Positions 3,370 through 51,876 of a stretch of DNA of 64,000 nt are shown here, piece after piece. The DNA is taken from the NCBI GenBank assembly GCA_020137815.1, contig CM035360.1:1302001-1366000 (forward strand), read 5' to 3'. The DNA is from Hormiphora californensis. Its lineage: Eukaryota; Animalia; Ctenophora. The notes under the pieces were generated by a model that saw only the letters and a program-made list of their open reading frames with translations, ran no database searches and was not told the DNA's origin. Every line of letters begins with the position of its first letter. Within the stretch, counting starts at the first letter, position 1. The position numbers were made by a program, and so were the translations under genes.

Positions 3370-3380
3370 ATGTTCGCCAG
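3370..3380 (+). CDS. Coding exon 1 of the giant gene (M-F-A-R)
   Basis: ATG TTC GCC AG followed by the donor GTAATA. Phase matches the next exon. Confidence 0.7.
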
Positions 3381-3761
3381 GTAATAAGTTCAACAATCGT
3401 AGTTCGAAGTTATCAGAACAGAGAGAATAGATTAAACTCTCTCAATAGAAGAGTTTTTATCAGCTGTAATCATATATCATAATATAAAGTTGTAAATATT
3501 AGATAAACGCCTTAGTAAACATACAAAACTGCAGCATGTACTAACGATCTTCCCCCGGTCAGATCGATAATATTGCTAGTAGCGCTACAAGTCCTCCAAG
3601 TGCTGAATGCTAAGGACACTCCCATAGTTTTCCATGGTAAGAAATGAAGGAGAGAAACATATAATACAGATCAAGGGTGTTCATAACTTTTCTACTGTTG
3701 TACATTAGTTGAGAAAGATGGGGGAGAGTGAGAGAGAGAAAGTTAAGATAGTGAAAGTTAA

Positions 3762-3798
<37 letters not shown>

Positions 3799-6700
3799 GG
3801 AGAGAAATGCTAGAAAGAAGGATTACCCCAACCCCTGCTGACATAAAACTTACCCGTTGATTCAGGTGATCATCAGCTCCGGCAGCGATTAGAGTTTATC
3901 ACGAGTGAGCATGTTGTCGGAAGAACACAACCCTCAGCCTCAATTTCCACAACCCGCTCTGCAGTCATTGTTATTGATATGCCAAGAGCCGGATTTCCCA
4001 TCGCCATGGCTACCATAGATACCTACCAAAGGTTACAGGTTAGCGGTTTAACGACCGAGAGACGGACTATTATTGTTGGGAACAGTTACAGACTGCCCGG
4101 GTATGGGCTGATATTGATTGATTACAGGGTAATTAGCAGGGTAAATAGCAGAGTTAATTGGGTCGACAGGAGGGTGATTTTGAGTGTGGATCATGTGTCA
4201 AGCTCAGTCAGGGCTAAACGCACGCGTGAGGTGAGAGGGAGTAAACGGGAGAGTTGGGCCATTCGTATAGTCAGTTTGTCCGTTTCCCTGTCACCATCTC
4301 ACTTCTCACCTCACGCAACATCACCCTCACCCTCACCATTCCTCATTTCTCATTCAGGAATCCTCAAATATCCCTCCGTATCCCACAAAAAGGGAGTCGT
4401 CTGTGTGGACCAGGGCGCTATTCGACTCTCAGCCATGGTCCTGATTGACATGCCCCGGGCTGTTAGACCTGGAACGGTGATGGTCATGCCTGGGGTCCCG
4501 GGATGGGGTTCATTCCTGACCCGACACCGCGTCCTACCAACACTACCACCTGTGATGGGTGTGGGTGTACAAAACCAAGATGACAGGAAGATGATTCTGA
4601 TCTTTATCCCTCGATCTATCTCCCTGGGCAGGTCCTTTGCTGTGCCCCTTCAGTCCAGTGAGATCCATGGGGATCTGGGGGTAACTTCCCCACCCTTAAC
4701 TACGTTCAAACAAGGTGGATCATGGAAGCAGGGGTGTACTTTTCACAACTCTCCTCTCCTTGTTCCCGGGAAGGTGGAGCTAAAGAACCCGAAATCCAGG
4801 GTGACCAACAAACATCGTCTTACGAAGAGTTCTGATCGGCTGCAGAGAACGGGGTTAACAAGGGAACAAGAGACGATAGTGGCCACTACTAGAAGGAGGT
4901 CCTACACTCTCACCTCGAAACACGATGGTAAAGTTTTGAAGAGAACAAACCGACTCCTCAGAATGAGGACTAAACACCGGCTAAACTCAAAACAGAGGAA
5001 CCTGCGTAAGAGGTTCACCTACCTGGCCAGCAGACTCCGTCTGGTCCGGGCTTCTCTCATGATAATGGAGATTGAGAGAGAGGAGCTCGAGGGATGGGTT
5101 GAGAGCGAGACCGGTCACGAGATGGATGTCCATGGTGAGGTCGAGGAAGAAGGTCGATGGCTGGTCCCCACTTCTCAGAGACTGGACTATCCAACGTCTA
5201 AATCTACCCCGGAAGTCGTCACCAGAATCCACATGGGGAGGGTGGTACGAATTCCGTCCATCCCAAGCCGTACCCCTCCTGCGTTCGTTCGTGCTCACAT
5301 GTACCACACAGCTCGGGAGATCAAGAAAACATCCCTCTCATTTTCGCTGTGGAATCACCTTGCAGACACCCTAAGCATTATGTTGGAGGTCCCTGGACCA
5401 CAGCTGGGCGGAATCCAAGTGGGAACCTCACCCTGTACCCACTCTTTTAACCGGGTTACCATGACGACGGAGCAATCACCAGGGTCAACATCTTTAGTTC
5501 TTCAGCAAGGGGTTACTGGGAGGAGCACGGCTGGGATGTCTCTCCTGATGTCAACACCAGATGGGCCTGAGCAGTTCGTGGATCACCTTACACCACCCAT
5601 TATCTGCAAACAAGGCAGGAGGAAAGGGAGGGATATTGTGAGGATAAGGACCACAAAGCAGACGCCACATCCATGGTTCACAAGATCAGGATGTAGTTCT
5701 TGTTTTCACACCGTGGATGGGGAAAAGAGATCAGTTACCCTTCTGAGTGGAAAGAGGAGATGCCAGCCAGAGAGGAGACTCCAAAAACGGTCTGGTGGTG
5801 ATCATTATTGTATTGATTGGCTGGAGGGGAGCTATTATTGGGGTGTCAGTGAGGAGAACTTGATTGTTGTTTGGAACTATCAGTTTCCAACTAATTATTC
5901 CCCTGATTACTCCCCTAATAACTCCTCTCAGTCCAACCTAGAATCATGGTACTGGACACCCAGTTTAACTCGGTTCTTCACCTACTACACATTCCTCCAG
6001 ACACTCCAACCAATGTCGGCCCAGGTCCAACGTTTCAGGCTCCGATACCCGGGAATTGACCTTTCAATGCGTCTCTCAATCAAGTTCTGCTTTTGCTTCC
6101 CATCACGGACCCTCACCCTCAGTCTCCGATCAATGAACTACATCACTAACCTATCCGGCAGGATAGTTTCCGCTGGCTACACAATGAAAACACTTGTCAT
6201 TATCCAGTCTGTGCACTCCATTCTCCAACCAGCTGGTGGCTACAACCTGGTTCTACAGCAGCAACACCAAACAGGGTTACTCCAACTCCTCCAACCACCA
6301 CAACTAACTGGTTACATCAGAAGCACCGGATATTCTCTCACTCTAACCAGTGTTACTGGTTACAACACAGATCGCAGGTTGGTTGGGGGTGTGGTTGGGT
6401 TCACCACCACTCATCCACTGCCGGTGAGTATGTTCCTGGTGTATCAGCTCCAACCCTACACGGTAAAAGAGACTCTTATTGTGGTGAATCCTGGTGCTCA
6501 ATTGGAGGTGATTAGTTTCACAGCTAGCAATCTATTCCTCCCAGTCACACCTTATACGATGCGGTACAGAAGTCCAATCTACCGGTCGGTGCAAGTGTTT
6601 AGGTACACGAGTTCCTCAGATATTCATAAATACTACACTCCATTCGTTTTAGGTAGCAGTCTCAGGTTTGAGTTGGTGGCCAAGCCATACTATCGGTCAG

Positions 6701-9700
6701 GGGAACAACGACCAAGGACCTACACCATGTCCAGTGTGAAACTCTTCAAAGTGGTTAGAAAACAGTTGAGGAGTGACCCAGATGGGATATCAAAACATAA
6801 CATTCAGTACTTCTATAAGAGGATAATCGCAGAATTCTCCACCTTTCAGGTTGAACAAAAACATCATCAACCAAAATCCGTGGATAGATCACAACTAAAA
6901 CTTGGATTCAAGCCAAAACTGCTGAAACCCACAACAAGACGGGTTCTCGTGTTCCAAACACACCCCCACCTCATTTACCAAAAGATACCAGTACTATCAG
7001 TGGAAAGGTACAGCGTTTACAATGCTTACAACTACGGCACATCCGTACTACTCTCCCAGCCACATCCTGTGTTAACCTACAGAGAGGTAACGGAGTATGG
7101 GGTGACAATACACGTGTTTGGAGGGAGGAGCTACACTTCATCAAGTATCTCCTTCTATCGGTATTACCTGGGGTCCAGGAGACTCATCCAGGGATACATA
7201 GCGCGTCAGTTGCATCCCCGGATTTCTAAATTTTACTCCCACCTTGCTGCAGAGATGGTGATTGTTCACCACCCTGACAATGTAATTCGACCCGATGATA
7301 AGAGAGAAGGATCAAAGGTGGTGAGGAACCGGGTGAGCGGCTACGACAAGAAGCTGGTACCCATCACCCCGGTGAAATTTCGGACAAGGCAAAAGTTGGT
7401 GAAGGAGCATACTGTGAAGTTGCTGTTTAACTTGATAGGAGCACCAGAAAAACAGGGGGTAAAGTTTGTAATCCAAGATAAACCCTACTTCACCAGGACA
7501 TCCATGGTTCAACGAACTAAAGCTGTTGCGCAACCATCAGTAGGATTATCTCAAATGCTGATTCCTGTTCTGGCAGGCCATTCCAAGCTCAGCTACGTTG
7601 GAGAACATTGTGGGTTCGTAGTTAGCTCCCTACCACTCCAATTTACGGAAGAAACCCACGTGTTGGGTCTTCGTGAGGTGATCACAATGACTAAAACTCG
7701 CTCATGGCTGGCCCATTCTTTCAAATCTGTAGACACCAGTATCGAGAACCGTGGAAACATCGGACATCAAAGAACTCGTCTGGACAGGATCACCTGGCTT
7801 CAAACTGACACGAGGAAACGTGTGAAAGCAGTGGTGACTGGAAGAGTGAGTGACAGTACACGGATGACCATATCTACCAGCGATAAGAATGCTTACGTAA
7901 GGGTCCTAACCAGAAAGCAAACGAAGGCAGTAAAAAAGAATGGCTCCACAGTGGTGAAACTCATTAAAGTGCTCCTATATGAGACGAGAGAAACGGTCAC
8001 AAAACAAGACAAACACACTATCACCAGTCTTCGAAAGCGAACCGTGACAGTGTCCCAGCGATCAAGGAAGCTCAAACGGGTTATTTACACCCGTGACCAG
8101 ACTAGCAGGCAGATACAGATAGTTGTCAAAGCTGTGGTGCTGGGCGAAGTTGGGAAACGAGCAGGAATGACAGTCTTTAAAAGTTCAACTGACATTTTGA
8201 AAATTGTTTACCGAAGGCTATCAAGGGTTGAAAAGATTGACCGTTATGTGGGTGTTTCTCAAAAACTAGATAAAATTGTAGCGATTCTCCCCGACACGAC
8301 CGTCAAAATAACAAAACCATCCGGCACCATCCAATCTCGACAACACCAAACAAACCTCAAGACCTTCCACTGGAATCGGAGGTCATCACAACGAGATGTC
8401 CAGACATCAAAAAGAGTTGTCAGAATCTACCAGAAACGAGTAACGGGTTCAGTGGATGACACATTCCGAATGACAATGTCCTACAGCCTCATTTTTGTCA
8501 GCCAGAGTTACGAAACTGATAAGAATATAGTTGGTGTAAAGGTCAGGACAGCACCGGTGACAACTGACGTTAAAGTTGTTCATGAGAGAAAGATTGAGTC
8601 AAAGACTGAAACCCAGCCTAGGCATAAATTCGATTTCACGGTTAAACTCATATCCTTGAGACATCTGAAAGATATGAGGAAGAGGCTGCTACGGAATGCT
8701 AAAATACTTATCAAGTCTAAACTTTTAATGGGAGTTCTAGGTGGATTTGGAGAGAAAACTCATCATCTGGTATCGATCAACACTTTCAAAAACCACAAAA
8801 ACCAAAAAATAACCTGGCATGTCTTTGTAAACAGCCACAGACGGATACAAAGACGACTGAGAGCTAATTCAAGGCTTGATTTGTGGGCACTTCCAAGATT
8901 TGAAGCGAGTTCCAAAACCACAAAACCCCATGTGATGAAGGAGCTGATAATGCCCATGACTAACAAGGGTATGGTAGTCCATCAGGACAGAACTAGCCAG
9001 GTGACACAACTGACTCAGGTGAAAATCACTCAGCTGGTCATTTCGAAACTGTCTGGAACAACCCAATCCTTGGTCATGTTTGTAGTTTTGAATGACATAT
9101 CCGATAGAACAAAGACTCCTAAACGATTCATTGATTCCTTTCAGCGAATAAAAACTGTGCCCCTGCTGCACAAAATACAGAAAATATACGAGCGTGCGTT
9201 TCGGCAGCAATCTAATTCTGAGCCGAAGAAGGAAATCGAGTTCTTGTTCCGTAGACAACTGAGAAAACTTTCTGACAAGTACGCGTCAAGGTATTCAATT
9301 GAGAGGAAGATTCCGACAAAAACCGCTCTAATCAAAGGAAGTTTGGGCAAATTTACAAAAATAACTTTACTCAGAAAAGAATTTGTCGTAAAAACTAGAA
9401 AGGAAAACTTCCATATTGTCACAGCAAAGTACCTGATTGGAGTCACCAGGCACATCTCAACAACAAAAACTAAAACTAAATTGGGTTCCAGGGTGTTCCC
9501 GTTGGTGGTGGTACTAAAACATGAGGTGACAACCAATGCGGAACACCGTCTTGCTAGTCTCTGGAGCAGTGCCTTTGAGCTCAGTGTTGTGGGGAGTCGA
9601 AGAATTCCCATAGATCAATCAAAGAGGTTTAAACTAATTGCTAGGGCAGAGAGCCTGTTTAGCACGGAAGTGGGAAGATCTCAGCGTATGGTGACACATG

Positions 9701-42700: not shown

Positions 42701-45700
42701 CACTGCTAATGATTCAGAACGATCCCATATCAAGGCTGTAACGAGACATGTGATAAGAACAGTAATTACCAAGGCTGCACAACAGTTCCTCGCACTACCA
42801 GTGAGAACTCTCGCAGTTGTTCGAATTTGTTGGGTTGCCCAGACAACTGTCACTGGAAACAGAGAGCAAGAGTCAAGTTATCGGCCGAGGAAGTTGGTTG
42901 AACCAATGATCAGGATGACAAGAGATAAGAAATTCGGTCCGGTTACAATGAAGGTGATCAGTGAACACCAGGAATTGGTTTTAAAAACCGGGAATCGGAA
43001 AATCACAGATGAAGAGGAAAAGACGATGGTGGTCAAGATTGTCATAGTTAGACACGCCGTTCTGAAGGGCAACAAAGGTACTAACATGAGCTTTACGTAT
43101 AGGCAAAGGGTCTCACATAGCAACAGAAGTGTGATAAGGGTTAAAACCTCGCTCGCTGTGGTAGGCGAAATAGTAGGTTATCGGCTCTTGAAGCACTCCA
43201 GTTATACGTGGCCTAAGTTTGGGCAAACCTCTAAAGAGGGAAACATTCACACCGTTTCTTATACCGGCTCAAGAGTGGCATTTGTTTCCATGGCAACATC
43301 TGGAAGGCTCCACGTGCCACTAAGACAACAGGCCACTGCAGTAGCTCGGAAGGTGGACAATCGAGTCAAAATATCGAACTCAGCTGAAAGGGATATGTTT
43401 GTGGTGACAACTAAAATGAAGACAAGCACCAGAAAGCCCTTCCGCCTGTTTGATATCACTCTAAGAGGAAGGAGCTACTTGGCGACCAATGGAAAACTGT
43501 CCCTTTGGAAGATGGAGATACACCGCCTCGCTGACAGGATTATCATAAGAAACGAAGCGAAGAGGGTTATCGATATTCAAACAATCTTCAATGCTTTTGG
43601 GTACACCAGAATGCGGTACAGCGTAGCAAAACTACGGGTAAAAACGAAACCACTAAGGAAGATCCGACCATTTGTAGAATCAGCCAAGAGTTTGAAATCA
43701 GGCTCTTTAGTAGTACTTGGCAAAGGAATAATCAAGGAACGTGGCCCCGGAGTTACCATTGCATCAATTTGGAATCAAACTAACTTGGTCAGTTACCATG
43801 GTGATATCTAAGGAGCATTCTAGACGGAAGATCACAGTTACCAAAGACAAGATCACCGTACCAGCGAGCGTGAAGTACTTTGCCAGTCACCATCATACCA
43901 GGGTACAAATTGGCCTGCCAGTTGCTATAGAAACAAAACCCCAACACCGAACTCTTTCTTCAATGGAGGGAAAGTACCATGGTCTTCCATACCACATCTT
44001 CTCCACCCGGCCTGTATCTGTGATTCAGCACGTGGAGATAACACGGCGGATGAGAGCCCACTTCCTCACCTCAAAACAGTACGCTAGTGGCAGTGAGAGG
44101 AAGGGAATGAAGCGGTTCTTCTACCGTGAACACCCCCGACTGAGGGTAGTTGCGGAGTGGGAGGGAATCCTAACTCCAGTCATGAAATGGGAAATGTCGC
44201 GGGGAAAAATCCATGCTCTACCGACAACTGGTCGAGATTTACAGCCTGGACACACGGTAACATTGGAACGGAAGAGGATTGTCTACTATCTGGTGAGAAC
44301 ACTTCAACACTCAAAAACGCTGGGATCTGCACAAAATGAAACAAAGTTCACTCAGTTTAGAGTTGTGTTTAAACTCGTCATCAAGACTAGAGATCAACCT
44401 GCTATGGGATTCGTGACGTCCATCAAAGATGACTCCAAATCCATCTTTAGATTACAGATGTGGAGGGCCTGGAGTACAGAAGTTGTGGAAGGAAAGTATG
44501 CTACAAAGCTCGTTCCGAGGACCAACCCAAAACCGCGGTCAAAGAGGTCAGACAGCCACAAGCTGACAGCATTTGTGGAGTTGCGAGACAACTCTGCTAC
44601 AGAATTAGGACGCCGAACAGCCACATCCTTCCCTACACTCAGTACAAAACACCGTGTAACCCCAGTTCTTTATGCCGCATCAGAAAGATCAGATGCAACA
44701 TCTACAGTTGCCTACCCGCAGCCGGACACCCGAGTTGACACGGATCCTCACCATCACATGGCAACGAAGCATTTCCATGTGGCGGTTCTGCGGGGAGAGA
44801 TGCAGATCTGTGGAATGTACCAAAGAGTCTCAGTGAGTCGGTGGGTCAAACTATCCAACACTCCGGGAAGACATGATGGAGAACTCAGGACGCATCACCT
44901 TAAAAAGACAGCCCGACAAGCGGGTGACTTGGAGAAAGTGTATATTTGTGCAGATATGAAGAGGGCGACATTGAAAAGAGTTCAATTCAAACTTGCCGAG
45001 CCCGATTTCAAAACAATTTCTGGACCTCAGATGACTCTGGTATTGGTAACTGTGATAAAGATGCGGAAATATCTTGCGATGAAACATCTCGGTGACACGC
45101 ACAGCCTTGTATCTGGTAAAACAGTACAAGTATTGAGAAGAACAATTAAAAATCCAACCAGCAAGGGGACAGTGAGTTTGTCGGTGACAACTTTAGCAGC
45201 TCACCAAATGAGAAAAGTTAACAAAATATTACGAACTGTTTCAAGGGGATACGCATACCACAAAACACATGTCAGCTGGAGGAAAGAAACACGTCCTTTC
45301 ATGGATAAAGAAGACGGAAAGGTGCTAGAAAAGCATACCATCAAATCTTTTGTCTCCGCGGAGGTTTCTATCAATAAACCTGGGCTTCATCTCGTCCTCA
45401 CATCACCTGTAACACTGAAGACCAAATCTGGTATAATGGATCGAGCTCACATTCAACTTACAACTTCCATGGAGATGGTATCGGAGGTGACAGTACAACT
45501 GAGAATGAGAGACGACAGTCCCAAAGTTTCAGGATTCTCCCGCCTCTCCGTAACGAAGAGATCTTACTGTCTGGTTGGAGTGGACCCAACTGAAATAGGT
45601 AGATGGGAAATGAGACTCCGAGATGATATAAACGATGCACCCAAGATAGGCTTTGTGATGGAGCTTAAATCTGTCATAGAAGTACAAAGATACCGTCTCC

Positions 45701-48700
45701 ACCTTTACCGAGAGGTTACCATGGACACCGAATTCCATGTTCGTGTTCTCCCAAAGATCAAGTACACCTTTGTTGCTGACACGCAAATATACCGTGGAAG
45801 TGACAGTTTTACTGAGATGATAACATACAGAGACACAAGACATACCCTCTCTATTGAGACCGTCGGAGCTCGCATATGTAGCATCTCCTTCATAAAACTT
45901 GTCAAGGGTCGTGGAGAGAAAGTCGCTCCTTCATCAACAAGCTGTGAATTCAAAGCACTTGTCAAGAAGCTGGTTTACATTGTCGGTAACGGTAACATCC
46001 AGGTCACTGGGAAAGCTCCTAAAATTACCTTAATAACCAAACTTAGCTTCGCTCTGTCACGTCTGGGAGCCACTCGACTATCTATTGACCACCACATTTT
46101 ACGGGTAACAGGTCAAGGTATTCAACCCCGACGAATTCCACCTCTAATAACCCTGACATTCCACGAACAAGGTCCATCTTCAATTGTCGAGAGCGGTAAC
46201 CGGAAACGGCTACCAGTCAAACTAAAGATCTCCTTAGCACAGACTCGCGGGTATACTGTACAAATACCAACCGTAACAGTTGTACGGCGTCTCCCGCTAG
46301 TACCAAGTTCACGTGAAGCAGAGGGACACACAAGACCTTCCTCAAAGATACTTCTCACAAGAAACAGCGTGGCATCGCTAGTTTTGAGGAAAACTCGGCC
46401 TAACGAAATCAAGACTGCGGTTACCACTCGGTTTGTTAAGTACGATATCTCTCAGATATCCGCCGATCTGACTGCATCTCTAAGCATAACTACCAGTGCA
46501 AAAGATGAGTCAATCAAGGTTCGAAGGATTCAAAAAGTCAACATATCGAGGGCAACTCGTGCTACTACTCAAGGAAAGACCAATAAAAGAATAATGACCA
46601 TTATCGTAAAAACAAGCAAAGAAAAGGGCCATGGAATAATTATTCAAGACCCAAAGTTTTCTAATTCCCTTCACCACACATTCTCCATCAGCCATCGCCA
46701 GTTACCCCGGCAGCACTACACTCGGATTCATATTGTACAACTAATAAGGATGAGAGTGACTGACAGAAAGAGTGCACCAACTCCCAGATCCTCTGTCACC
46801 TCTTCAAATCTGCTCCAGGTGAGACACGGCAAGAAAGTGTTTACAGGGGTTACCGTTATTGTATGCCATCGAAAACCAAAATGTCACCCTCCTGGGTTAC
46901 CAAGACAACGCGGTGAAGGGTTACCAAGGCAACGCGGTGAAGGAAATAGTGGTGAAAATACAGATGATAAAAGATATGAAGGTGATGATAATAGTCTTCC
47001 AGATTGTGGGCCCGAAGCTAAACGTAGCTGTGATAAAAGACACGATCCTGACTGTGACCAGGGTGGCGAGTTGGAATTGGAAGAATCAAGACCACCACAC
47101 GGACAAAAATCCCATCACGATCCCAGACACAGTAATGTAGGACCAGGCTGCACGGCATCATCGGCTCAAGCTATCATCTTCCATTGGCGTCCTACCAACA
47201 TCAAATCAGTGACAACTGGGCATACCCTCCGGTACATTGGGGGACAACACGATGACATGGACAAAACTGGGACATCCATGAAGAGCTTTTCACCTGACAA
47301 AACGGTCAAGTTGTCAGTTCGTCCGGGTATCCCCACTCCTCCAATTAAGTTGAGTGATGTGGGATTGGTACCCATGGTAACCACCATCACAACTCACGTT
47401 GAACCGAGGATCCTTGTAGGAAATCTGAAACTCACCGTAGTTGACAAGGTTAGATTTACTGATAGACAGACTCGTGTCAGGATTGTGGCCAGGGGATACC
47501 TGGTATTGTCATCAACTGAAAATCCAGGACCAAAACATACCGTTATCATTGAGGTTATTCGACAGATGTTCCGTGTTGGAATTGGAAAAGACTCCCTTCA
47601 ACTACCAACTAAGCTAACTTCAGCTGTTATTGCCCATCCTCAAATCACAAGATACCAGGGCATGCTCGCTGCATCCCTTGTTGTCATGACAACGGCAAAG
47701 GATACAAAGTACGTGGTTAAAACTGCTTACAGATGGGACTACAACTGAGCAGAAACACCTGGTGAGAAGGTTAGTGATGAGGAAACGTGTTCTCTCCTTG
47801 AAGATAGCCGTGAAAGTTCAGGTACCAGAGCTGTACTTTGCTGAACCGGAAATCATTTCTTCCGTTAAAACTCGTCATTATGGACTGAGTGTTGCCATGG
47901 AGACGAACATGCTTCGATTCGATCTACTGACAAAGACCAACAAACCATTCCTTATTGGTAGGACTAAGAAGAACGAAATGGTACCTTACATTGTTTCAAA
48001 TACCGAGCTGAAGACTTTCCGACATAAGAAGTTCACCGGTGCCCGAGGACGACACGCTCTGCTACTAACTGTGAGCCTTCAGACTAAGAAGGTTTCACAT
48101 CGAGAGATCGGAAGAGTGAAGGGAATTGGCACCGACCACAAATGGAAACCTACTGCCGTGATAGTGTCAAAAGCTGATGTGATTCAAGGGCACGATACTT
48201 CTTCCCCAACGGATGCTCTCTCGACTAAAGCATTGGCGAGCTTCACCCCTAAGCACCTTTCTTCTAATCACAAGTGGTACCAGGGTATGGAGGTTTATCA
48301 CGAGGTTTATCACGAGGTAACCCCTCAAGTAAAACGGACCTCGTACCACGACATAGGGATGAGAGTTCTTGGCACCAAAGAAGGCACCAGAAAATGGGAG
48401 TTACCTGTATTTGTAGCTTCGTCCGCAAAGAAGCTCAGGCACACTGTCCAGCTAACTGCTGGAGTCAGATCAAAGGTTGAATCAGTAAGAAAAGCTCGGG
48501 TTCTCCAACTGACCAGTGTGAATCTCAGAGCTAAGATTAAGAAACATGATCCAAGGATAAAACTGCAGTCCGTGACAGAAAGAGATTCCTTCGTTGTAAG
48601 AACAAGGGCAAAGGATGACTCTTACAAGGTCACTACGTACATTACAACGCTGTTCTTGTACGAGCCAAACGTCAAAACAACCGAAAAGCGAACGGCAAAG

Positions 48701-51700
48701 ATCCTGAACTTCAGACAGTCTGTCACTTCAAAGCCAGAGCATGAGATGAGCTACAGCTATGGAGCGTCACAATCCATTAGTTCTGTTGTGCACGTGAAAC
48801 ATAGCAGGTTTGTACACACTGTGTACCTAAAACTCGGCATCATCCCCCGGATACGATTCCAGGCAGGACGGGTTTCTGGAAAGATAACAACACGGTTTAC
48901 CATTGCAGACGAGTCTGTCAAAGAGGGACTCATTGTTCACGGGAAATTCATATCTATCTCCCTTCAATACCCACTACTCGCAGGTTCACAAATAAAGAAG
49001 GTCCGGCGAATCTACCCTGTAATGAGCCAAGGATCCTCTCTTCAGCCGTTCGGTTACACTCTCACGATTCTCAAACCCCACAAACGCCGGCCAACTTTCA
49101 CCAGTGACCGAAGTGAGATTCCTCGGTAAATACAAACACCCGGAAACCAAATACAAGAGGCTACTTCAACCTCAAGAGTGAGGTCACCCAGGAGCTTTAC
49201 TGCAGTGAGGAAGGTCAAATACCGATATGAGGAGTTGAGGAGTTTGAAGTACCGACAGGACCAGGTTGATGCTAATGATCTCTCAATCAGAGAGGGCTAC
49301 ACCAACTTTGGTCTGTACGTCGAGGAAACATTTGATGATGTGGAGGAACGTCCAAGACCATTGGCCACAGTTGAAAGGATTGAAATTGAGATGATTGCCA
49401 TTTCCGCTCCCACCGTGCGGACCCATCCTAGAGTTTGAGGGACAATGGTTTCACAGAACTACCAAGTACAAGTTCGGTGGCCACAAGTTCATCCAGACAG
49501 AGGTTATGTTAAATCCTGGGGGGTGGTGGTAAACCCACTGCCTGGATAGAATCAGATGCAGTTAAGATTGGGGTGTTTGGGTCCCATGAGATACAATACA
49601 TTGGGGAGGAGAAGGCAACAACGAGCGTCATCATCCAACCATCCACCGCCAATACCCGGGATACACCCAAGGAGATCATTTCAGTTGCAAAGAATAAGCG
49701 AGTATTCGTGGTCCGTCAGCACACCTCCTTCAGAACGTTCTACTTTGATCTCAACACGGATAAACGCCCACGTGAGCACGTGATAAAGGGAGTTTTCTCG
49801 GAGCAGAGCAATCACCTTGACTACCATCTCCTCCAGTGTCGGGTCTACAAAGATCGGGTCAGGTTACGGTCAGGTGGAAGGAAACGGAAATTGAATAGGA
49901 TTGAGGGATTAAACACTCGCCAGAAGAGAGCTTGGAAGATTAGGTGCTCAAAAGCAGAACTTGCGAAGCGAGAAGTCCTCTCATTCGGTGTCCTGACACA
50001 ACCAGATCAGAGAATGGAGCTGATAATTTCCTCGGAAAATGGCTTCAATCCCCGATCAGAAACCGTATCCCAGTTGATTATCAATAATCCGCACTGGATC
50101 GTGTACACGACAACCCGCCACGATCACATGATTGACCGAAACCAAGATATTTCAAAGGTAAAGTTTGTGCTTGGAGGAAACTATCGGAGGGACCATGAGC
50201 AGAAAACTACTTCCTCATATGTTTATGGGAGCACGGAAGAGAGGAAGAGTGCCGAGTCGTACACCTTATCAGGACCGTTCAAGGTTCACTTTGAATCCAA
50301 GGGAAATCTGCATTCGGTACACTATCGGAATCTGCAAAAGACGACAGTGGAGTACAGGCTCGCAACGGAAAAGGAGCAGAAATCTGTTGAGGGGAAGTGG
50401 GGAGTCAGTACACTTTGAGTAAAGGAGCACAGAGTGCAGGGGAGTCATACAGTTTAGGACTTGGGAGAGAGTGGCGGGAAAGAATCAGAATCTTACACTC
50501 TCAAAACCGGCAGTGTCAGTGAACAATCTCAAGGACACTCGGTGAAGGGAGGAGAATCATTCAGTCTTCAACTGGACCAAGACAACCAGTACAATGAACA
50601 GTACACACTGCAAACGGAAGGCCAGGAAAAGAAGATTATCAAAGGCGAATCTTACACTCTGCAGCTGAATCAACAAGACCAAACCGCCAAACGGTTTTCT
50701 ATCTCCGCAGAAGATGGCAAGAAATATCAGTTGCAAACGGAAGGCCAGGAAAAGAAGATTATCAAAGGCGAATCTTACACTCTGCAGCTGAATCAACAAG
50801 ACGAAACCGCCAAACGGTTTTCTATCTCCGCAGAAGATGGCAAGAAATATCAGTTGCAAACGGAAGGCAAGGAGAAGACGATTATCAAAGGCGAATCTTA
50901 CACTCTCCAACTCGAGAAAGGAGGCTTTTCAAAGGAAGAATATTCAGTTGGTTACAAAACTGGTGGTAAAGCTGGAGTGGAACATAAATCGACAGAGTCG
51001 TACTCGCTTCAATACGATCAGGGTGATCAAAAGGTAGAGCAGTATTCGGTTGAGTATAAGACTGCTCAGTCTGCTAAGAAAACAGAAAAGAAGGAAGAAT
51101 CGTACTCTTTACAGATCGATCAAAGCGATGAAAAGGTTGACCAATATTCCGTTGAGTACAGGAAAGAGGGAGTGGAAGGACGTACACGATCAGAGAAATC
51201 CGCCGCAGCTACAACGAAGATGAAAGGGGTAAAGAAGAGCAAAGAATCCTACAGTTTGCAGTGGGATGAAGATAACAAGGAATCAGAGGAATACACATTC
51301 CAATACGATAGCACCAAACAAGAAGGGAAGACAGTCGTCCAAAAAGAATCATCAAGTGTTGTTAAAAAAGAACCATCCAGCGGTGTTAAAAAAGAAGAAA
51401 AGAAGGGAGTCACCAGAGAAGAATCTTACAGTCTTAAACTTGATGAAGCAAACGAACAGTCCGAGGAATACTCCGTCCTGGGACCAGAGAAAATTGACGA
51501 AAAGAAGACAGAAAAGGAGACAGAAAAGGAGACAGAAAGTAAGACAGAAAAGACCAAATCTGAATCCTACGATCTCCAACTGGACGAATACACGGAGGAA
51601 AAGGAAGATTACTCACTCGGATCACAGGGATCAGTTCACTTCAACAAATCGAGCACGACAGTAACCAAACATGCCCGAGCAGTAGGCGGTGGAGAGAGAA

Positions 51701-51876
51701 GGATTGTCGAGAAGGGTACTCACACCCGGAGGGGTCTCTCGAGGAGGGAGGTATCGAGGAGGGTTGTCGAGGAACACCATCATGAACTTAGAGGGACGGA
51801 GGGGATACAGAGGACCGGGGCACGGGTTACAGGCAGGAATATGATGCACATCCGACACCGAAAACTCGAATCATAA
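3370..51876 (+). CDS. Giant secreted repetitive protein (~16,000 aa) of unknown family. Exons 3370-3380, 3563-3636 and 3866-51876, the last broken by single-base insertions.
   Basis: ATGTTCGCCAG|GTAATA (phase 2) joins an acceptor at 3562 preceded by TACTAAC and a pyrimidine tract. Exon 2 ends CATG|GTAAGA (phase 1) and joins TTCAG|GT at 3865/3866, in frame with ORF 3979-9915. Fourteen abutting or overlapping + strand ORFs share composition and repeats up to the stop at 51876. AATAAA at 52291. Confidence 0.8.
3563..3636 (+). CDS. Coding exon 2 of the giant gene, carrying the signal peptide core (SIILLVALQVLQVLNAKDTPIVFH)
   Basis: Branch point TACTAAC at 3539-3545, acceptor CAG at 3560-3562, donor GTAAGA at 3637. 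Hydrophobic h-region and L-N-A cleavage motif. Confidence 0.8.
3721..3806. repeat. (GA)n-rich microsatellite in intron 2 of the giant gene
   Basis: gagagagaga runs at 3770-3796 and flanks. Confidence 0.9.
3866..9915 (+). CDS. Giant gene segment 1: basic K/R/T/V/S-rich N-terminal region with a Tyr/Trp-rich subregion
   Basis: Frame open from 3847 to 9915 (about 2000 codons). Confidence 0.8.
9950..18049 (+). CDS. Giant gene segment 2: basic domains plus Cys-rich type A (LPxC) modules
   Basis: 2699-codon ORF, +1 frame offset from segment 1. Confidence 0.8.
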   Translation: MIARELLRGASKSEVMTSFSQGVNTADEAETETSLKAAGVKTVLPTKVVLKKLVKLELMGSSKTVSAKKIKHLLLASINYRAVDHSRLGYQIEQNTGVKVTQVTKMTLQKSAKFINFAIAGTRVSHKADRVIKYLNSVAATDELGAVYKKHPLVSGKVTQTSHTISQYKLTFQFFARTGGPVEFYHKKRVADAAISTGKSVIIGGRPQLKPSFKTHPIYIFQDFSRNAVRKVERNKFSHARLIKRTTGTGKAKKEVLVILLSFTTTVFKRTIRVWRLNHRSLFSHGRVRSRGVAQTAISQDNKVVQVVKAVLREKFDNTAHFVPGTFQVKDGYVTHKFRAFSTHDFCYTGTKSKVKKLMIAKLTGGTQHTDHTIKRAHDVKVTRFLLVDGEWHQRIEKRLRIETGKVKVVKVSIRVLFGEHSIIFRFSHDLISEKLILVNRYKSTGHRQTFNDKTALQTRKLVRKKIVKLAHKNIGGSKFKTWGRPLNLKVKKDGLSREFRMLGVVHRAGNWRIHLFSTLKHRTLEKIKFWALQGSLLSVVVDYPLTFRADHQVKKQYQLQSHKIKHGTKYTGLKTTFDVNGGSGDYKLHQFVLHTTLSIGKAYQDASSGDKEMRVGWVHLFRDPQLMTGYWRRTTTRFEVGNNLKKEPLEVWSRQRVVLISDPLSVTYTRLVIPKGRAEFVVRRSKVHGEPVRLIKQSANTVSTVSGIRAQYHQDPQIGYLTTYHPLPLLSTKSTTTHVFSMVPSETLQPRKSTGRKSSAQSLFGDYNSLTCRKYSVHLLKVHYCNAVKLCNERPDDDDTDTRGTKEESSDKQQGTSDSKKSDSRKSAGQGKQKTDTRDYDTICSWIDDFKSRYRLMNRLFEDATFIEQFNCNEVTQTVPDFQSPSTNPLPTCSKSETLKYFRGPELPKECSKVLPVCADNVAPSSVVDSHGHPLCQTKKILSKLPICSKAQLKTDRVKNSHLTCLTEEEKQELKLPTCQPNQASKNSVDGTKVCLGPDGRSPSSCLWLDHLYHAGEVHTSCGPVLPVCSSSSNTNEETIGHVDYRPPRLPSQCGGFVLPVCGENTSPSQVVDKDGRKLCQVKSALLKLPTCKSEQLRSRNKNSVLTCLTDEEKKELKLPVCNKIQSPLDKKGNAICRSYRYQEDSAGKSCLWYESLFETRLKRKTCQKKSTLLELPICGKETGASRVKNSSFTCLTADEKTQITLPNCTKDKSENDKSGKRVCRKTNDTKTCLRFEDDVDHKQPKKCRKPVKSCKEIQGEVDWWTLLLRKQNRRQNVRNDLLISVFDFVSDDEKSCLKIEQMDELLEEVEKVCTPFGPELVMYGKVKEYEATHPMSPNAVTWGYGEVSIGTRTGKFDLHSSQAVISDAKTRRSRVVKKVTQAAVRPLKGQVTGKFLVIERYFVLTKFNLKFVNRYSWELHLLRTSSKFAFPGIVTFKKLTWPSKYRHFGGVKINENVKLMRQRIRYWRADKRKTNVVKVVQAVLTGSTKNLVIYHFGDSLGNKKRVLDYWIFKVTTSEMHVIQSMGINDALWRDKITETKHKWSVGHSVKYSARRIVGKSSTGRWMGFVKFDERKMKGVLKKLSKHKAVNIKVDMEAFVVIGFQKSGSDVHTRKHAEAFQEQFVGQTSKQSYRKVVLALSHNTDEKKWNKLTVLTRRKKDFVIHLARLSDSKIDTKTTKHVHRKAHFKFIILRNIVIVQTATHKVESKYHNKHLAAVAGSTGLVDGIGRAVTITQHQLQTSSDFQIRYKVKCFCRRNSLKKAEIFKKMVLGAAVRKSYKSSGKIIRIKISTVKREQKMQLGMRSRNVYVAVKKRSNQWEVDVNFIETKMEVFKSIQLAVTQGSREEPRHRVKGLIFRAKRRKLRHGTSSSLLIGPKIRQRVLVTTKQVGVKISKSAEIDSFVVTTGAKSLSLSKKARVFILTLVITTETVFNKFEFRKVRIELKTGLAIEKGKKFLITGRARHSPLPLHGSRRVYVAKQRVSAELEEVVAGATSALTTKTINFFQIKTVHDRVVSKHLTFVTSKLFSAGDQRIRVELHKIGHKRFSDKHRVTDDKRKVIYLFDHATTKVGYHQQRGTGRSIQNRFKFVRHDILEISGAGTMIQYVLLYKGSFQKRDGGLLLFTFHSKVGYFIAKHRAIKLKLITLKLSSDAKQDNTMKLIAVNRPKALLIIQGGRRHRETKIRQHVSKKFTKVSIKVSESRDMGPFAVGSRIKDDSKKVWKLQQGKVHDAMFVGQKMKLTQPDRSVKLRHKTSKSHTIKKHLGRNVIYRMKIVHQLSRHVAKIRLRSRQVIVTMATLVPSGRFKETFSSIEALSLKTRFHLKIIRGVAVLAQSTRTDEKKVKRSKLGLKIKRLSSSKGKEHKYTQNGRTFVEKSSLLSFLSRHKSQTVPKTFRTMLIRDAFFIISHRRRSLVTFHHVHREFLVTMVTTRGYLSSRPLFFQDSAKRLSGLILTEIRGAYSSWQLTKGTGPNLPATDRSLTAAHQLKVLAVVRVVGESKMRSYDRALTTIRHYTKSLVVAKTKVKLSGSSELSTELSVTATLKDVSTRAVGKQRGRAGDVLSQITTSKTSKVPRSKIVSTRGKTKEPAGYKSLRMNLVIKVMETEMISRLIDSKPALSSSTLLVKFELVAAYKALKTSKQKSSIIKDPLKSMTVKTSLASDSHFISQPCLKFTTIVLHRDDYSPDTMLQTGTSSLQHRE
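12680..13660 (+). repeat. Cys-rich type A modules, first cluster (~100-aa unit)
   Basis: Recurrent LPVC...CQTK..L.KLP.C...Q.....KNS.LTCLT.EEK..L.LP.C......G..VC......SCLW at ~12680, ~13110 and (partial) ~13440. Confidence 0.85.
17973..20978 (+). CDS. Giant gene segment 3: acidic/GGMGGS/poly-Pro hinge, Cys-rich type A modules and basic domain
   Basis: 1001-codon ORF overlapping segment 2 in the +1 frame. Same type A modules at 18480-19100. Confidence 0.8.
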   Translation: MCFIVMTTVLIPCSKLAPPPFNTENKEFRELSERSCGRGMSLYPIVPFSDDRESEVLPPCKEPVPDDDDGEDDECEDGDDEEEKSKKAGKPPAKGGMGGSGMSGSGMGGSGMGGTVPGGMGSKSKTPPPPKKCKKRRPHSLPSPPTPPCKPKPRSLPLCLPFKTPKLPLECGRMLPVCTRTDPPNGVDENGNRVCQTKDGLLKLPMCKEHQIGLRRLKNSALACVIPEEKAQLTLPECRKDQSPRAKNGKQVCWRDNGSSKSCLRLIDMTLTEPEAPPENCGPVLPTCMEGIDPKNGMDNTGVVVCQTKSKLKKLPVCKENQKGAKRIKNGFLTCLTGPEKNQLTLPVCKKDQHPENKTGKVCRTPEDDEKSCLWHRTIFSIPECRLPDKVQKLLGPSYVPYCEAGEVPSCKIPGDHIFMGPQFSFLPDCPDRSILPPPPPPPPCRPAAAMPNAKNEKLPVCKPTCRDAAAMVTPKNKSLPVYEKKLKCRAVTEKVTDKNKEWPICAVKKVHCRPRRSYHHGYEEKQPPIQPKDTVVAKIRSCTKAEVKLIITMTKDNEEKRCQKVEYECHPKTPYKHPELFAGLEKAFHYCHRSDRSHYQGLFRRRCSRGIMVTMDTTDTHIDSLGDSVAEKKMMAHIVRIKRLYQGTGKVTVSRWISASTKMKTLQKRKPVLKLNTKYQAGFSVVEVVQLGSTKLTGIKKAVSVDFLLISSGDKVTPIVMATVSVQRDETTRGHNLKLAMTSHLRRLIRHDQMTKYLISENEFKYALSREIITLGILSDLEESFVVTTKIKHDSYQTRGVQRAISVRKIGPVTTLKVTKYREIKFATGTRRRDEVKQKSVTLLVSVSSYSLDFRGFRKFAKQDTTIKIISTDPEPKLTSEPLHPFLLDQSHGLQELGSTKQQRVTVSYHGVSTCGYILHDQADFLVVRYQFLNEPQYVVGGLGEEGLHFTTESRERRTYVTRVQNVAHLSCWNPLFVGLKAGSVAPCSYSPDDPYHPSH
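20940..26465 (+). CDS. Giant gene, heavily frameshifted first super-repeat unit (ORFs 21085, 21365, 21916, 22238, 25005)
   Basis: Fragments align piecewise with the intact units inside ORF 26451-43811 once single extra bases are removed. Confidence 0.75.
21292..38480 (+). repeat. Four ~5.3-6.0 kb coding super-repeat units, anchored by near-identical blocks starting at 21292, 26952, 32916 and 38169
   Basis: Block MxMTCDVIRPGSxTFFLIEDKKGDLIDEYRSKSEGPGPSDLYHVKQFLFLKQTRI.V.TIAPVISCQ.VFPFQKDL occurs 4 times. DFINKGL.SKTSKSHKMKHINAIVNVLFKDLHQKH occurs at ~22640, ~28305, ~34263. FEHRG.MTYNQHRIVYKLLQSK.EQDSFVVTTKIFDESSKMFGKQRGRA occurs at ~23426, ~29094, ~35052. Confidence 0.95.
26451..43811 (+). 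CDS. Giant gene, longest intact segment (5786 codons): super-repeat units with Cys-rich type B modules
   Basis: 17.4 kb without a stop codon. Internal repeats are visible in the translation. Confidence 0.9.
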   Translation: MSSLPRGFGYFYTKENVQERRLHIVRFDKIAVMSSICRRPLLRRVDWEMFESVDVTGKTHTMTYVVQHREMARTTIRFLILPARKSWTQAVVSRHRIVIDPLPRVGSKLFLPATTAALTPGPVKSYLNFASVRRGLKPLVIERRIGRGGFIVEVKENEGHKIGVFAGMKMTCDVIRPGSHTFFLIEDKKGDLIDEYRSKSEGPGPSDLYHVKQFLFLKQTRIKVHTIAPVISCQRVFPFQKDLLHSKARTSVESIVKVGRVESSKSAEIDSFVIETKIKDSSIKVKTVIGDGSWMKKYEATKGVLKEQKLQLLFLSKHFKAHKMKIFDSGLWRSDVRSVRHLKLHLKFHRLATLKQIKAQRKRITFLKTSHQGGYIVASFGEVALGYQLNGFLRGRSLKIWTIRSDETIAKNKIVVVTVTKHRFSVVHKMKQYARFYSLANKTIFRKRQVPGLADATAQGVVIARPVLKDDFRRTGIYRISSKFHHEINQIKVFISAMSSREIITLALSKMGILVRKKVEKLGSKESTSHSWKSFASIFTKSWIDTTKIRLLLEHDARTKTSKTKVDNRVKISKALEWDMFVVEGSIKDNGRDMYKLLRRIIVLDLNKREAVVKFVHVDFINKGLTSKTSKSHKMKHINAIVNVLFKDLHQKHLLAATTLLKPGILKIKPFELRTVTALYRGMFWINLSGVNSKRTHVPFTFLTAGSRGYSLTAGKVQPVVKAKVTKSFSKLEAGNQLVLTGSQMLRAQVSLEEKFLIIARDGRTISLQKYYLEYPFFVFSNRLVHFTRFVSTTKTFSVTRVSAKDWLSVHHAFFHKSTGRKTQLTMEIVLVEQWYEKIHGTYPYKLPSTDRKMSKGHGFKTFRSRLMTHSSLVDQGLIAFFEHRGEMTYNQHRIVYKLLQSKKEQDSFVVTTKIFDESSKMFGKQRGRAGWEMLGITMTTLRKIGPHKMSGFRAKTGSPPNYRRVFKHIVDVTPNIRVKRVTLVAMDTKLIVKPWSIDPIPGLGKTATVSVSNNISVQPRQVVRVKTGVDVAKDGYTGSCTKLRIIRSGSEDKPPYPIWKSTGCAKQLQLTSSSKDASPQRGTLPGTPKWTVLIPPSESCSSLDKFGGRKCRDVACERPCSDHGESCGKCKRGFCTTQGCFQMVCDETSIAKGTCDDSKCNEKLVSEGKCKKLFCSGTCVSAMCSANNNTCYKRVKCARPDSKGNCSQDKPCSTVEMADGRCHPVPCSCLNSTACKSWVAPSCEHHHSVDFCTRNGLQRSCNRGHCTNTGCYQRLCNETQIKTGNCDDQACNETFVTEGKCRKLPCSDIPVSPSCLNNRCYQRVMCGKATCDQSRTCSATEIASGRCKEIPCTKSKTPSKYGFCKGVTLARVSCEHSLLCKDYGEPKICLEGFCNESGCYRKLCTTTERNTRRCSHQECNDTLVKQGKCIRLPCSDIPVSEMCQDNSCYQRVKCSNPDKNGSCEQAKPCTKSEIKNKGCKVVDCDSISGSLSSKTKACEGVSYPKNPCSTSLDTCQEPDQYTCKLNIVILIRFLKLSKETAKIQPEKILKYTGTVTVNTSITPKGWYVSGAQGHRLGSVKPAVKIVLRGSTKQRSLMAVSQTVMFDGRGLVAVKRAVSLSKVYGTTGGQMVKLVQIPITNSGSKTRGGHSVSLQQALVIQSLFYIGNKKRLTLSKPETKVSSSIRVIRLSTKTSEKDSFVVTATAKDHTVKVYERQFLKVFTQTFQKRTTKLVKSRVIKLTTEQRVKRGPNFKQTVSLKPVQTSQLSSHNRRSNVKMDVKVAVVYHRGTVTQSTEGSDKFTLSESSELFVGKVWPATQAVGIKNFDPRTPKCAFHVTRPASKFMIMEYEFVAQPLFVIEQQEGCTRGTRGFCDRTGCYQMICEEKSAKDASCDDSKCNEKLVDEGKCKKLSCRGTCVSPMCSADNNTCYKRVKCSELQKGEICDQTKPCSATEISDGSCVLADFTSLKEICLNNVVTSCKNWAPPKTCGPDFFYTKEFVREHTVHIDRFDYFSRSAQLSSTCKRDAVTILPVHWLLQGYVEVTLQTHYLKKSVVYTTNKLIVPRPIISPNREPSHTVMVSRHRVSLTVGVKSRPVYTDPISSAVLGKGPSKVYLQAVHLLKNLNAVIKVQQITRASIMLNGIKSERHEFKAFVRMEMTCDVIRPGSQTFFLIEDKKGDLIDEYRSKSEGPGPSDLYHVKQFLFLKQTRIRVRTIAPVISCQKVFPFQKDLHQFKQQTSVKSIVKVGRVESSKSAEIDSFLVETKAKDSSIKVVTYLRDELWQQKFLLQTSKLKTEVLTLLLLTKASKSHKMNILDSGLWRNNLRFTGHLRHLRKFQRRSSSKSVMRLRSRIVITETKDRAWYTIGTTGDIATGVHHRVLSTSQGLVRGLTAEGKIQKLVTKAVTELHHGFIKVHKFQVSVSYFSKTEKLTHTRRPSIRRVDIKAVVVNSPRPELIGKFQRSDIFLTHSSMKHGLGRILVYRNGAMLLEIFTGNEGKVEKILRKNIAKGSSKETTSHSIRISARIKTESWFDHSKARYLIGGPIQASTKWIKVDIKIRKSSAAELDIFVTEGSIKDNGRDMFRLLRRNIFTTVNHKGVSKIFKVDFINKGLASKTSKSHKMKHINAIVNVLFKDLHQKHHHVTGTKRRPKVSKIIPFEITEFSPLQWGRFTVVARGQDITRHLIPITTLVAIDRGLTVSSLKMFKLKIAVITEVDRNIEDEKKVTLLGEQELLTKVMFKIQMRHTEPQSSSVALRHYYLQYAFFTFSIRNGKIELLTMTTKTFAVRRVSALEFVSLYDPLYYKTRARKTQTTLMNTLVMQWYEKKTGTYPYRLPGTHHKLQPRHTIKTSRGRLMLHSSNEDLGLVSYFEHRGEMTYNQHRIVYKLLQSKREQDSFVVTTKIFDESSKMFGKQRGRAEREILTASLVKFTKLVPYKITGHRDDMKDPPGLKYHFKHIVDVTPTYIRETWKPAPSDTKITLKEWSIDPIPGISRSENLVTRPRMAIIPKKSWPVKTVVLGGHPQSMCQALQLQTDRIPSLPWKTSRCRGEFQEITQPDGPPVLYRVCSCAREGKQGELIMIPKSDTCNMIPGVQCEPVNCDRMCLHSCMTNCSERCGGQRCGKPGLPKCSRETEQCLEQCKVRCDPNLKCQPPSRLCSQPEQKAGKCKKGDMFPCSPTEVKSGKCGKPPPSCVECFVRKCDSATAAESCKQNTRCTEDEQEDGLCKPGFCTIDRVPETCEDRCSRLKCASAKCASSKSKCLSLCRAQTGFDCRENRCVSPTRRCSNKERKSAACKGGIIDCTKREIETGTCGKLPNTCQFCKTRNCTKSEVSAGLCTTKDNKIRCTKAEIVSGKCKDTLCNVEKCTKCTKNDPNTGTCLERTPVPCEPRTPCILHREFGCLSEAHQLSCQAQVLIVVRHLHLAKLGDSVEQETSMKLLAVNSPNKLERSGGIKAILGKRSDLIGQLVQKHQVYLNGKSVKSGELFVGSSLAVQPAGLVALKKGMARLVSYSVTNSETRLMVMSYIESTADKKLDGHKINYQFLSMVSLVRGVSVVSRRIDGSSSTKHSKLRIVIKLALFTRDEGEFSLATTAKDESIKVYQRQFIVAMETMYTGTQQKLSKPRLIEFSTDGIRRDSAKMKLFGSVSSQKSSVLSHRTVHGVTPIEVKGMTLFREHRFTITTKAVSMTTPVKTGILETHVLGKTLHSHAVKLYDPQGPECQLDLHPGGTEFLVIHYKYLTQPEFTVARQHGFFYTREHYETREVHISRLDQVSQVETRCRQPVIKKVIWWLDGGIEVTAQTHKMSQLVHFTPGYVLTLRLVYGPTRKPSHSVIFSRHRIHLALSASTTASFPQPAGVVGTAEGNRKVFLRSGSIVRGPSSDARVVKLGKGRVILSSDKADGHKVNAFAQMKMTCDVIRPGSQTFFLIEDKKGDLIDEYRSKSEGPGPSDLYHVKQFLFLKQTRIKVRTIAPVISCQRVFPFQKDLLSSEKQTSVEPIIKVGRVESSKSAEIDSFVVETKIKDDSRKVLRIFALGILHGFIGGGTSTLKKQVLVLKVSASREYTHKMKRLSEGLWKSSTHALAGQTRYHGRARKSRGLVKVFVKPQVNSLKGTLVITMTTDLSLDAPSRVDRKYLTAIANHHSFEATSRKTTQLVVTVISKLNHATSGHSFKQTASFVAESEKLTVLSENEGMEMQVKALPKRVERPILNLRSQFTMLLTHWSSVGNEPAQVLRLKTSRHVSIAGGGTVRVTKSTRIKAPSGSSRELSSHTQTYSASLFSFSSHSSKSRLYAEANQRTGTSVKVVSLKIKSQSTKERDSFVVEWAIKDDSHKRYKLLVGNVLGVRHIRLTSKLLKLPFVTSKYRGKREEQHRAKYIFSANDDQYKLLGLKSHAQMTTMIGAQPIKRRPYEIREFNAVGVGMFGAHGRLHSILDIHWRVLTIALTGSGMRSSKVKERRIRRVESVVGVNHSLPVAHTIKYTWDHTLQTHSTDHWVQRRVPSGGSEMFDSREHHDLAFFVFTERKVWFTAFVDNYREIRVIRLEMKEYISRDQVEGVRLIYRLPAIRRHAEAINRDLVMSGYDKRSGVLTPLPTTQRKKSNGHSLSMRGNVVTVTHPSLRQKFRRMAEVKLDTKFSKSIIIHKLSQEIADEPMWVSVNSAKITSKRPYERQRILLLYKVNRVTNLRIIRVVRTEAEPRHKVREGPKIKLSYRYTTNFEASGVRLISRDSGRDLKSVVKAVLYAASEVEEVNLIKRLLIAKAVIGIDVTIVMRLKTSAQKTPTDIVSSSKAQKVVLKIGAFEKNIVKEHTIKFNVGTSQEHQMMITFRMSHGRDTRTNTHLDARSRVVLVGKELFTKRVVLTQSKLWKERYAGLWRFGGMTTQTTANGNEKLSKFVLWKIEITKTKRSNGHNLNLFLSLKLRKTSHHASLLRAFSTSIDTKTSAKHKEIKITSGVEHQSELSVTSSMNDVSIKMEVETKGRAVLIGIKSSVETVVKVTVATMSTRVKQSSGHVVKLVGTLSSGAATKVLGEGRWITAAGDLSAKAISHNVSIHQGILATRQLAIAQTRELHLKRVVGWKGARVQGLVDAVCFTAYHTTPRRKQMRERRRLSYLGSAFFYTTVEHQQLYNYNYHKIPLMWEKKRELAQHEYFFLVKEDKMVEYEYVLSVEHRCSGLTVSIVEVEFFVTEETATVGYHGYNMRHVVARQPGVKILKGSMVNSGLEPSKEFKAILIRKTIVPSVAMVKRLLRSQGSTQITPIQPVPIKVLVVLGNKFQRAVVKLKRHPQITFTPSTSEHNRATLILTSDLRTTEGLLGHHSNIVSRTPRRTVSTTKVDHRITALKTENVDQLSVTTTIKDSTIKVLVLVTTVLGPSDGNIGHVRLKSFDIHDFPVIGKNINGHKIVIISSGLWRSNFVSYGVTKGTVTANDSERSHIKAVTRHVIRTVITKAAQQFLALPVRTLAVVRICWVAQTTVTGNREQESSYRPRKLVEPMIRMTRDKKFGPVTMKVISEHQELVLKTGNRKITDEEEKTMVVKIVIVRHAVLKGNKGTNMSFTYRQRVSHSNRSVIRVKTSLAVVGEIVGYRLLKHSSYTWPKFGQTSKEGNIHTVSYTGSRVAFVSMATSGRLHVPLRQQATAVARKVDNRVKISNSAERDMFVVTTKMKTSTRKPFRLFDITLRGRSYLATNGKLSLWKMEIHRLADRIIIRNEAKRVIDIQTIFNAFGYTRMRYSVAKLRVKTKPLRKIRPFVESAKSLKSGSLVVLGKGIIKERGPGVTIASIWNQTNLVSYHGDI
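43741..50418 (+). CDS. Giant gene distal basic segments (ORFs 43741, 47762, 49178, 49573)
   Basis: Same composition and the recurring S/D-F/L-V/S-V-T-T-x-K-D-x-S motif (e.g. ERDSFVVRTRAKDDSYKV at ~48580). Confidence 0.75.
50250..51876 (+). CDS. Giant gene C-terminal E/K/S-rich tail with repeated ESY(T/S)L and EQY/EEY motifs
   Basis: Removing three extra bases at 50390-50465 yields SGESYTLSKGAQSAGESYSLGLGESGGKESESYTL, continuous with ORF 50461-51876. Confidence 0.8.
50611..50910 (+). repeat. 123-bp (41-aa) near-perfect coding tandem repeat, ~2.4 copies
   Basis: caaacggaaggc starts at 50611, 50734 and 50857. Confidence 0.95.

Follow-up and report, generated by a model that had tools for sequence, protein, structure and literature searches.

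The flatworm adhesive proteins Mlig-ap2, Mlig-ap1 and Tmed-ap2 consist of 14,794, 5,407 and 7,228 amino acids, respectively. These giant proteins are secreted, contain core repeats of 220-330 amino acids and Cys-rich parts, are high in Lys/Arg, and carry vWD, TIL, TSP1, EGF, LDLa or C-lectin domains. One exon of Mile-ap2 measures 15 kb or more, and in short-read resources the proteins are broken into fragments (PMC6410801, PMC9229212). Barnacle cement consists of separate crustacean proteins of 19-100 kDa; CP-19 and CP-68 are dominated by S/T/G/A/V/K, and CP-19/CP-68, CP-52/CP-100 and CP-20 together present this bias, a β-sheet-forming bulk and a Cys-rich charged protein (PMC9999432). Giant exons are known from mucins, in which one very large coding exon, made of VNTR arrays, encodes a secreted or surface protein (up to 23,080 amino acids in human MUC12; PMC13345508). 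In ctenophores, the colloblast adhesive has been described as an unknown protein (10.1101/2020.06.27.175059), and the colloblast candidates of Mnemiopsis show enrichment in ctenophore-specific genes that encode signal peptides but none in low-complexity sequence (PMC6278862).

We analyzed a 64,000-nucleotide window of the Hormiphora californensis genome (contig CM035360.1, positions 1,302,001 to 1,366,000 of the forward strand), in which all positions below are counted from the first letter. The window contains a real giant gene. In a six-frame scan, the + strand between 3847 and 51876 was tiled by long, abutting or overlapping stop-free frames (2,022, 2,719, 1,005, 857, 5,807 and 1,338 codons, and smaller ones). 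The longest open frame in 3866-51876 had 5,807 codons compared with at most 185 in 20 shuffles, and a codon model followed a single coding path along the giant exon with frame changes that were mostly +1. The initial annotation had proposed that two in-phase micro-exons make a signal peptide; the start codon and the two GT-AG introns (3381-3562 and 3637-3865) were confirmed, and the spliced start, judged by eye, has ~20 hydrophobic, signal-peptide-like residues in frame with exon 3. The AATAAA at the 3' end comes after a trailer of lower GC. Read-through of 3866-51876, with X at each frame break, gave 15,991 positions and a sole stop at 51874, and the full product reaches ~16,020 residues once exons 1 and 2 are added; these values agree with the proposed ~16,000 residues and ~1.8 MDa. 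The genes adjoining the giant gene have ordinary short exons, as had also been noted. A 9-bp tandem repeat (4.9 copies, 3234-3277), which presumably resembles an RFX X-box palindrome, lies ~100 bp 5' of the start codon.

Features of the giant gene, with positions in the window
Feature	Position	Strand	Remarks
Exon 1, coding part	3370..3380	+	ATG at 3370, GT donor at 3381
Exon 2, remainder of signal-peptide-like N-terminus	3563..3636	+	Flanked by a CAG acceptor and a GTAAG donor; frame continues into exon 3
Giant exon 3	3866..52296	+	Stop codon 51874-51876; AATAAA at 52291 suggests the 3' end
Basic N-terminal region of ~2,900 aa (pI 10.3-10.6), almost without repeats	3866..12600	+	Weak repeat of ~200 aa around 7900-9400
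Cys-rich module A, 3 copies	12674..13676	+	
Block 0: basic modules D2-D3-D4	15110..17923	+	
Linker (acidic, Gly-Met-Ser and Pro) followed by two copies of Cys-rich module A	18100..19122	+	
Block 1: D1-D2-D3-D4	19791..23884	+	
Cys-rich module B, 3 copies	23975..25491	+	58 Cys in ~500 aa
Block 2: D1-D4	25440..29552	+	
Cys-rich module B, 3 copies	29655..31083	+	62 Cys
Block 3: D1, one module B, D2-D4	31011..35510	+	Module B at 32052-32415
Cys-rich block related to module B	35550..36756	+	C-x3-E-x3-G-x-C units, 53 Cys
Blocks 4 and 5: D1-D4 twice	36663..44781	+	
Further single D modules	45063..48958	+	At ~45.1, 46.4 and 48.5 kb
Tail: short E-S-Y-x-L units, then Arg/His-rich end	50200..51876	+	123-bp tandem repeat, pI ~5.1

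The expected ~48-kb coding stretch without introns was supported as one giant coding exon, but this exon as assembled is broken 22 times (13 breaks upstream and 9 in 32500-52450), and the single ORF depends on these breaks being assembly errors. DNA contigs from 4 of the 11 listed runs were compared with the assembly over 32500-52450 (~20 kb), the 5' 29 kb lying outside this read comparison. Among the 12 of 29 rows listed, the assembly carries single extra bases at 43768, 47735, 48385, 49121, 49201, 49421, 50396, 50407 and 50456 (+), and wherever a one-base difference occurs in these rows, the assembly is the longer of the two. Eight of these nine differences were found in both DNA studies, and 47735 was found in run X5 only. 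Seven of the nine breaks in this region were matched directly by a one-base difference in a contig (43768, 47735, 49121, 49201, 49421 and 50396, plus 50407 and 50456), and an eighth, at ~49513, is implied by a contig of 1,146 nt over a span of 1,148 nt with two gaps; the break at ~49165 is absent from the 12 of 29 rows listed. Two gene models of the ctenophore Pleurobrachia bachei were also informative: P0001, which aligns over 43254-46845 at 71-85% identity, reads through the break at 43768, and P0002 aligns over 48359-48757 at 84%. The extra base at 48385 matches no frame break, and P0002 runs straight across it; a compensating base change must therefore be hidden there. Farther upstream, paralogue alignments bridge 10 of the 13 breaks without an intron-sized gap, and the break at 21344 is a single extra base relative to all three paralogous copies. 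Most of the frame breaks examined are thus assembly insertions, and one uninterrupted ORF very probably spans the giant exon. The DNA contigs also contain in-frame 9-base insertions relative to the window at 50531 and 51058, indicating length variation in the tail.

We consider it quite improbable that the locus, instead of encoding one translated giant, is a pseudogene or broken allele, a row of two or three genes, or a set of internally spliced exons. Such a locus would account for the number of breaks, three of which (9909, 18010 and 26361) are backed as assembly errors by neither reads nor paralogues, and for run X4, in which the shorter form made up about half of the depth at six of nine sites and 0 of 59.6 at 47735. 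It would also be consistent with the 16 AATAAA hexamers within the coding stretch and with the presence of fragments only in P. bachei. However, the listed one-base differences all point to the assembly, the read-through has no internal stop, and there is no low-GC or non-coding gap, the lowest GC content of any 100 nt in the coding stretch being 0.30. The same module families occur on both sides of 18010, and the P. bachei draft is itself fragmented (39,072 contigs; PMC8527503). Internal splicing had been named as an observation that would weigh against a single exon. Splice donors of median strength number only three in the 48 kb. At the three unsupported breaks, candidate introns that would restore the frame scored 6-11 compared with ~20 for typical neighbouring introns, although the latter scores are inflated because the matrix was trained on those neighbours; no strong intron was therefore found at these breaks, by scores that were not cross-validated. 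Contig data cannot reveal splicing, and two seawater runs labeled 'RNA?' (X7 and X8), which may be DNA, touched, at low depth, 16 and 4 of the 30 bins and showed no spliced joint.

The product has a calculated mass of ~1.81 MDa, a pI of 10.0, 315 Cys residues and 2,730 K+R compared with 1,414 D+E. Its best 19-residue hydropathy value is only 1.75, in a segment that contains charged residues, and the protein thus has no membrane span, as initially stated. The description as 'mostly' K/R/H/T/S/V-rich was not borne out, since these six residues make up 46% of the chain; V+I+T account for 22%, S/T/G/A/V/K for 46%, S+T for 17% and Pro for 4%. An alternating polar/apolar pattern holds for the last ~1,400 residues (z of 4-5) but is faint elsewhere (z of ~1-2 in 8 of 10 blocks); at lag 2, the autocorrelation of hydropathy is near 0. 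The proposed acidic ending is likewise partly correct: the tail is mildly acidic (pI 5.1-5.2) but is followed by an Arg/His-rich end of ~70 amino acids. Tandem arrays occupy ~0.6 kb of the 48-kb exon (~1.3%), and 95% of 8-residue words occur once.

An iterated profile built on the motif D-S-F-V-V-x-T-x-x-K-D, with seeds taken from the giant protein itself, detected 26 copies of a D module between residues 3,894 and 14,932 (25 at E < 1e-3), and it gave no matches on a reversed control. The modules are ~305-430 amino acids long, with a spacing of 305, ~330 or ~424 residues, and fall into four classes arranged in the order D1-D2-D3-D4 in five full blocks, one block without D1, and singles. Comparison of the classes by hhalign gave probabilities of 80-98% for five of the six pairs and 25% for D2-D4, and most repeats are 11-55% identical to the reference copy. 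Between the blocks lie Cys-rich modules A (five copies) and B (seven copies and a related block). The initial annotation had thus correctly described a chain interrupted by Cys-rich modules but had missed the ~26 homologous modules that they interrupt. The ~300-residue D module is a candidate new fold.

Comparison of the blocks showed pN lower than pS in all 30 windows. Values of pS are mostly saturated (~0.7-0.9) but fall to 0.2-0.3 in patches of 160-380 bp, which have 78-96% DNA identity and lie near the conserved module motif (21263-21646, 26925-27305, 32914-33269 and 38140-38522, among others). These patches, which stand amid otherwise saturated blocks, are likely to reflect recent gene conversion. 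The module tree, in which 4 of 21 inner branches were starred, mostly groups copies by block position or class, and the chain may have grown by duplication of the four-module block, with patchy gene conversion later. Among the 40 SNPs listed of 185, 19 are synonymous compared with 11.3 expected (P = 0.008), and none creates a stop; constraint appears modest, since the other 21 of the 40 alter a residue.

When 1.84 billion representatives were searched with a profile of 24 modules, two matched, both of them P. bachei gene models (EukProt sb|3460725 and sb|3474277) that are 76-85% identical over the main alignments, which places the source animal close to P. bachei. They appear to be fragments of an orthologue, but they are unannotated pieces of 1,684 and 139 amino acids, and the start of P0001 is duplicated and its end is an unrelated repeat tail. 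No homologue beyond P. bachei was found among the 1.84 billion representatives, by word-based searches or in metagenomes. The word-based searches, with the 5,000-residue core, Cys-rich module A and the tail, are weak negatives limited by length, and the metagenome result comprises two scans. No Pfam family passed its cut-off in any of 15 pieces of the giant protein, and PDB sequence profile searches gave no match. The protein therefore lacks a recognized domain and appears lineage-specific, both as originally suggested, and these searches showed no clear full-length homology to a described family. The P. bachei model identifiers did not match in the supplement of PMC6278862, and a literature search, whose coverage excludes most subscription journals, found no description of the protein.

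Structure prediction for single units, which had been recommended, was carried out and matched no known fold, though only on models of low confidence: AlphaFold2 models of the modules reached pLDDT values of 44.7 and 30.6, and Foldseek on the latter returned nothing at E ≤ 0.001. Strands dominate the ordered parts, which show long-strand meanders and then helices; because both folds failed, the β-strand reading rests on composition and these low-confidence models. The modules could be degenerate TULIP/BPI-like or other β-groove domains of a giant lipid carrier, of a precursor for yolk or egg provisioning, or of a cationic defence array that binds LPS, but we regard this as rather unlikely. It is suggested by the long-strand meanders, by atlas features that placed one module with LmeA-bearing clusters (0.86), and by weak Foldseek rows that include P47 (E 0.09) and LPS-binding protein (E 0.36), both of which we take to be TULIP folds. 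However, the atlas score lies below 0.9 with 141 of 256 features shared, and a longer query gave LamG instead (0.78, also below 0.9). The Foldseek rows have an rmsd of ~30 on a model of pLDDT 31, and amphipathic periodicity is weak. No LBP/BPI, JHBP, LmeA or vitellogenin Pfam match was obtained for any of 24 modules at E ≤ 5, no PDB sequence matched, and hhalign to E. coli YceB, a weak single-sequence comparison, gave 0.08%. A LamG/pentraxin identity was not supported, with no Pfam match and an atlas value of 0.78 that disagrees with the 0.86 for LmeA. Membership among the large lipid transfer proteins such as vitellogenin or apoB was not supported either, with no N-terminal Vitellogenin_N domain and no Pfam match for 3847-9912 at E ≤ 0.1.

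The neighbouring sequence includes the end of an upstream ORF (3-1949, + strand), one long exon of at least 648 codons with a pI of 4.05, 23.5% D+E, a Trp/Asp/Gly-rich start and no Pfam match. This acidic orphan, opposite in charge to the basic giant, is a possible partner; it shows no similarity to the pre-tail part of the giant protein. A degenerate, stop-bearing copy of part of it lies at 2300-2620 (49% over 39 amino acids), and a stretch resembling its trailer is duplicated at 80% identity (2119-2305 and 2858-3039). Downstream on the + strand, a multi-exon gene at 53500-57900 contains the motif HCSAG twice and presumably encodes two tyrosine-phosphatase-like domains. A 237-codon ORF at 58579-59292 (+) without a Pfam match, followed by a 237-bp tandem pair, resembles, we assume, the C-terminal portion of a non-LTR retrotransposon (zinc finger/endonuclease). 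In the gene at 60450-62920 (+), which we take to be PTEN-like, a ~790-bp block with one exon is duplicated (92.7% identity, 28 gaps), possibly as an assembly artefact.

The initial annotation proposed an extracellular structural or adhesive material. Composition and architecture fit this proposal, and we infer the function from them: on balance, we lean towards a secreted, disulfide-linked, cationic material protein that is cohesive and glue- or matrix-like. The chain would enter the secretory pathway and be stored in granules, its basic charge perhaps balanced there by the acidic tail and by acidic partners. After release, the Val/Ile/Thr-rich modules may associate through β-strands, the Cys blocks may create cross-links or nodes stapled by disulfides, and the surplus of Lys/Arg may bind anionic surfaces; the 13 R-x-K/R-R sites might allow cutting after secretion. 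These sites, the modular build and the small disulfide-rich units would also suit a polyprotein whose cleavage releases cationic units that kill microbes, act as toxins or inhibit proteases, in defence or in the handling of prey; tentacle toxins have been proposed in ctenophores (PMC6278862). Such a polyprotein is nevertheless very doubtful: the dibasic sites are not repeated from one module boundary to the next, and searches for MACPF, aerolysin-type, Kazal, TIL and antistasin domains gave nothing above threshold.

A cohesive material protein finds its closest likeness in the flatworm adhesives. The giant protein shares with the ap2 type a putative signal peptide (judged by eye), giant size and long central repeats, and with the flatworm proteins more broadly the Cys-rich parts, the high Lys/Arg, the very long exon and the splitting into fragments in short-read resources. 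In contrast, its repeats are diverged and interleaved with Cys blocks, no sequence homology to these proteins was found, and none of the domains listed for them was detected; specifically, no vWD, TIL or TSP1 domain flanking the repeats was matched by Pfam. By analogy, the giant gene resembles the parts of barnacle cement joined in one chain, again with no homology found to those separate proteins. It has a giant exon in common with the mucins, but its chain is basic and its exon nearly free of the tandem arrays that mucin exons consist of, and the gel-forming mucin vWD/C8/TIL and cystine-knot domains were not found by Pfam. A mucin was accordingly rejected, as the exon is not a Pro/Thr/Ser-rich tandem repeat. 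We infer that the giant protein may work like flatworm glues or barnacle cements without being a member of either, since the defining domains were looked for and not found.

The giant gene fits the profile of the Mnemiopsis colloblast candidates in being apparently ctenophore-specific, predicted to be secreted and not of low complexity. Colloblasts are also present in lobate ctenophores, from which no homologue was recovered among the 1.84 billion representatives, a set that may or may not include lobate proteomes. Colloblast glue specifically is a tentative and unlikely assignment, with mucus, tentacle matrix or egg coat sharing the remainder. In its fullest form, which we advance only as a speculation, the protein would be a ctenophore prey-capture glue or cohesive scaffold of 1.8 MDa, built from ~26 copies of a new β-rich fold with disulfide nodes and possibly set by pairing with the adjacent acidic Trp/Asp-rich protein.

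Giant exons as such were already known; the novelty here is that a ctenophore has a 48-kb exon whose domains are old, diverged and unclassified, and a coding exon of this size that is not a tandem array is unusual whatever the tissue. In draft annotations, giant-exon genes of this kind are represented by unannotated fragments alone, which is a blind spot. The gene is a concrete candidate for ctenophore extracellular material, and, if the colloblast reading is true, the adhesive would be encoded by a high-complexity 48-kb exon that short-read gene models have shredded.
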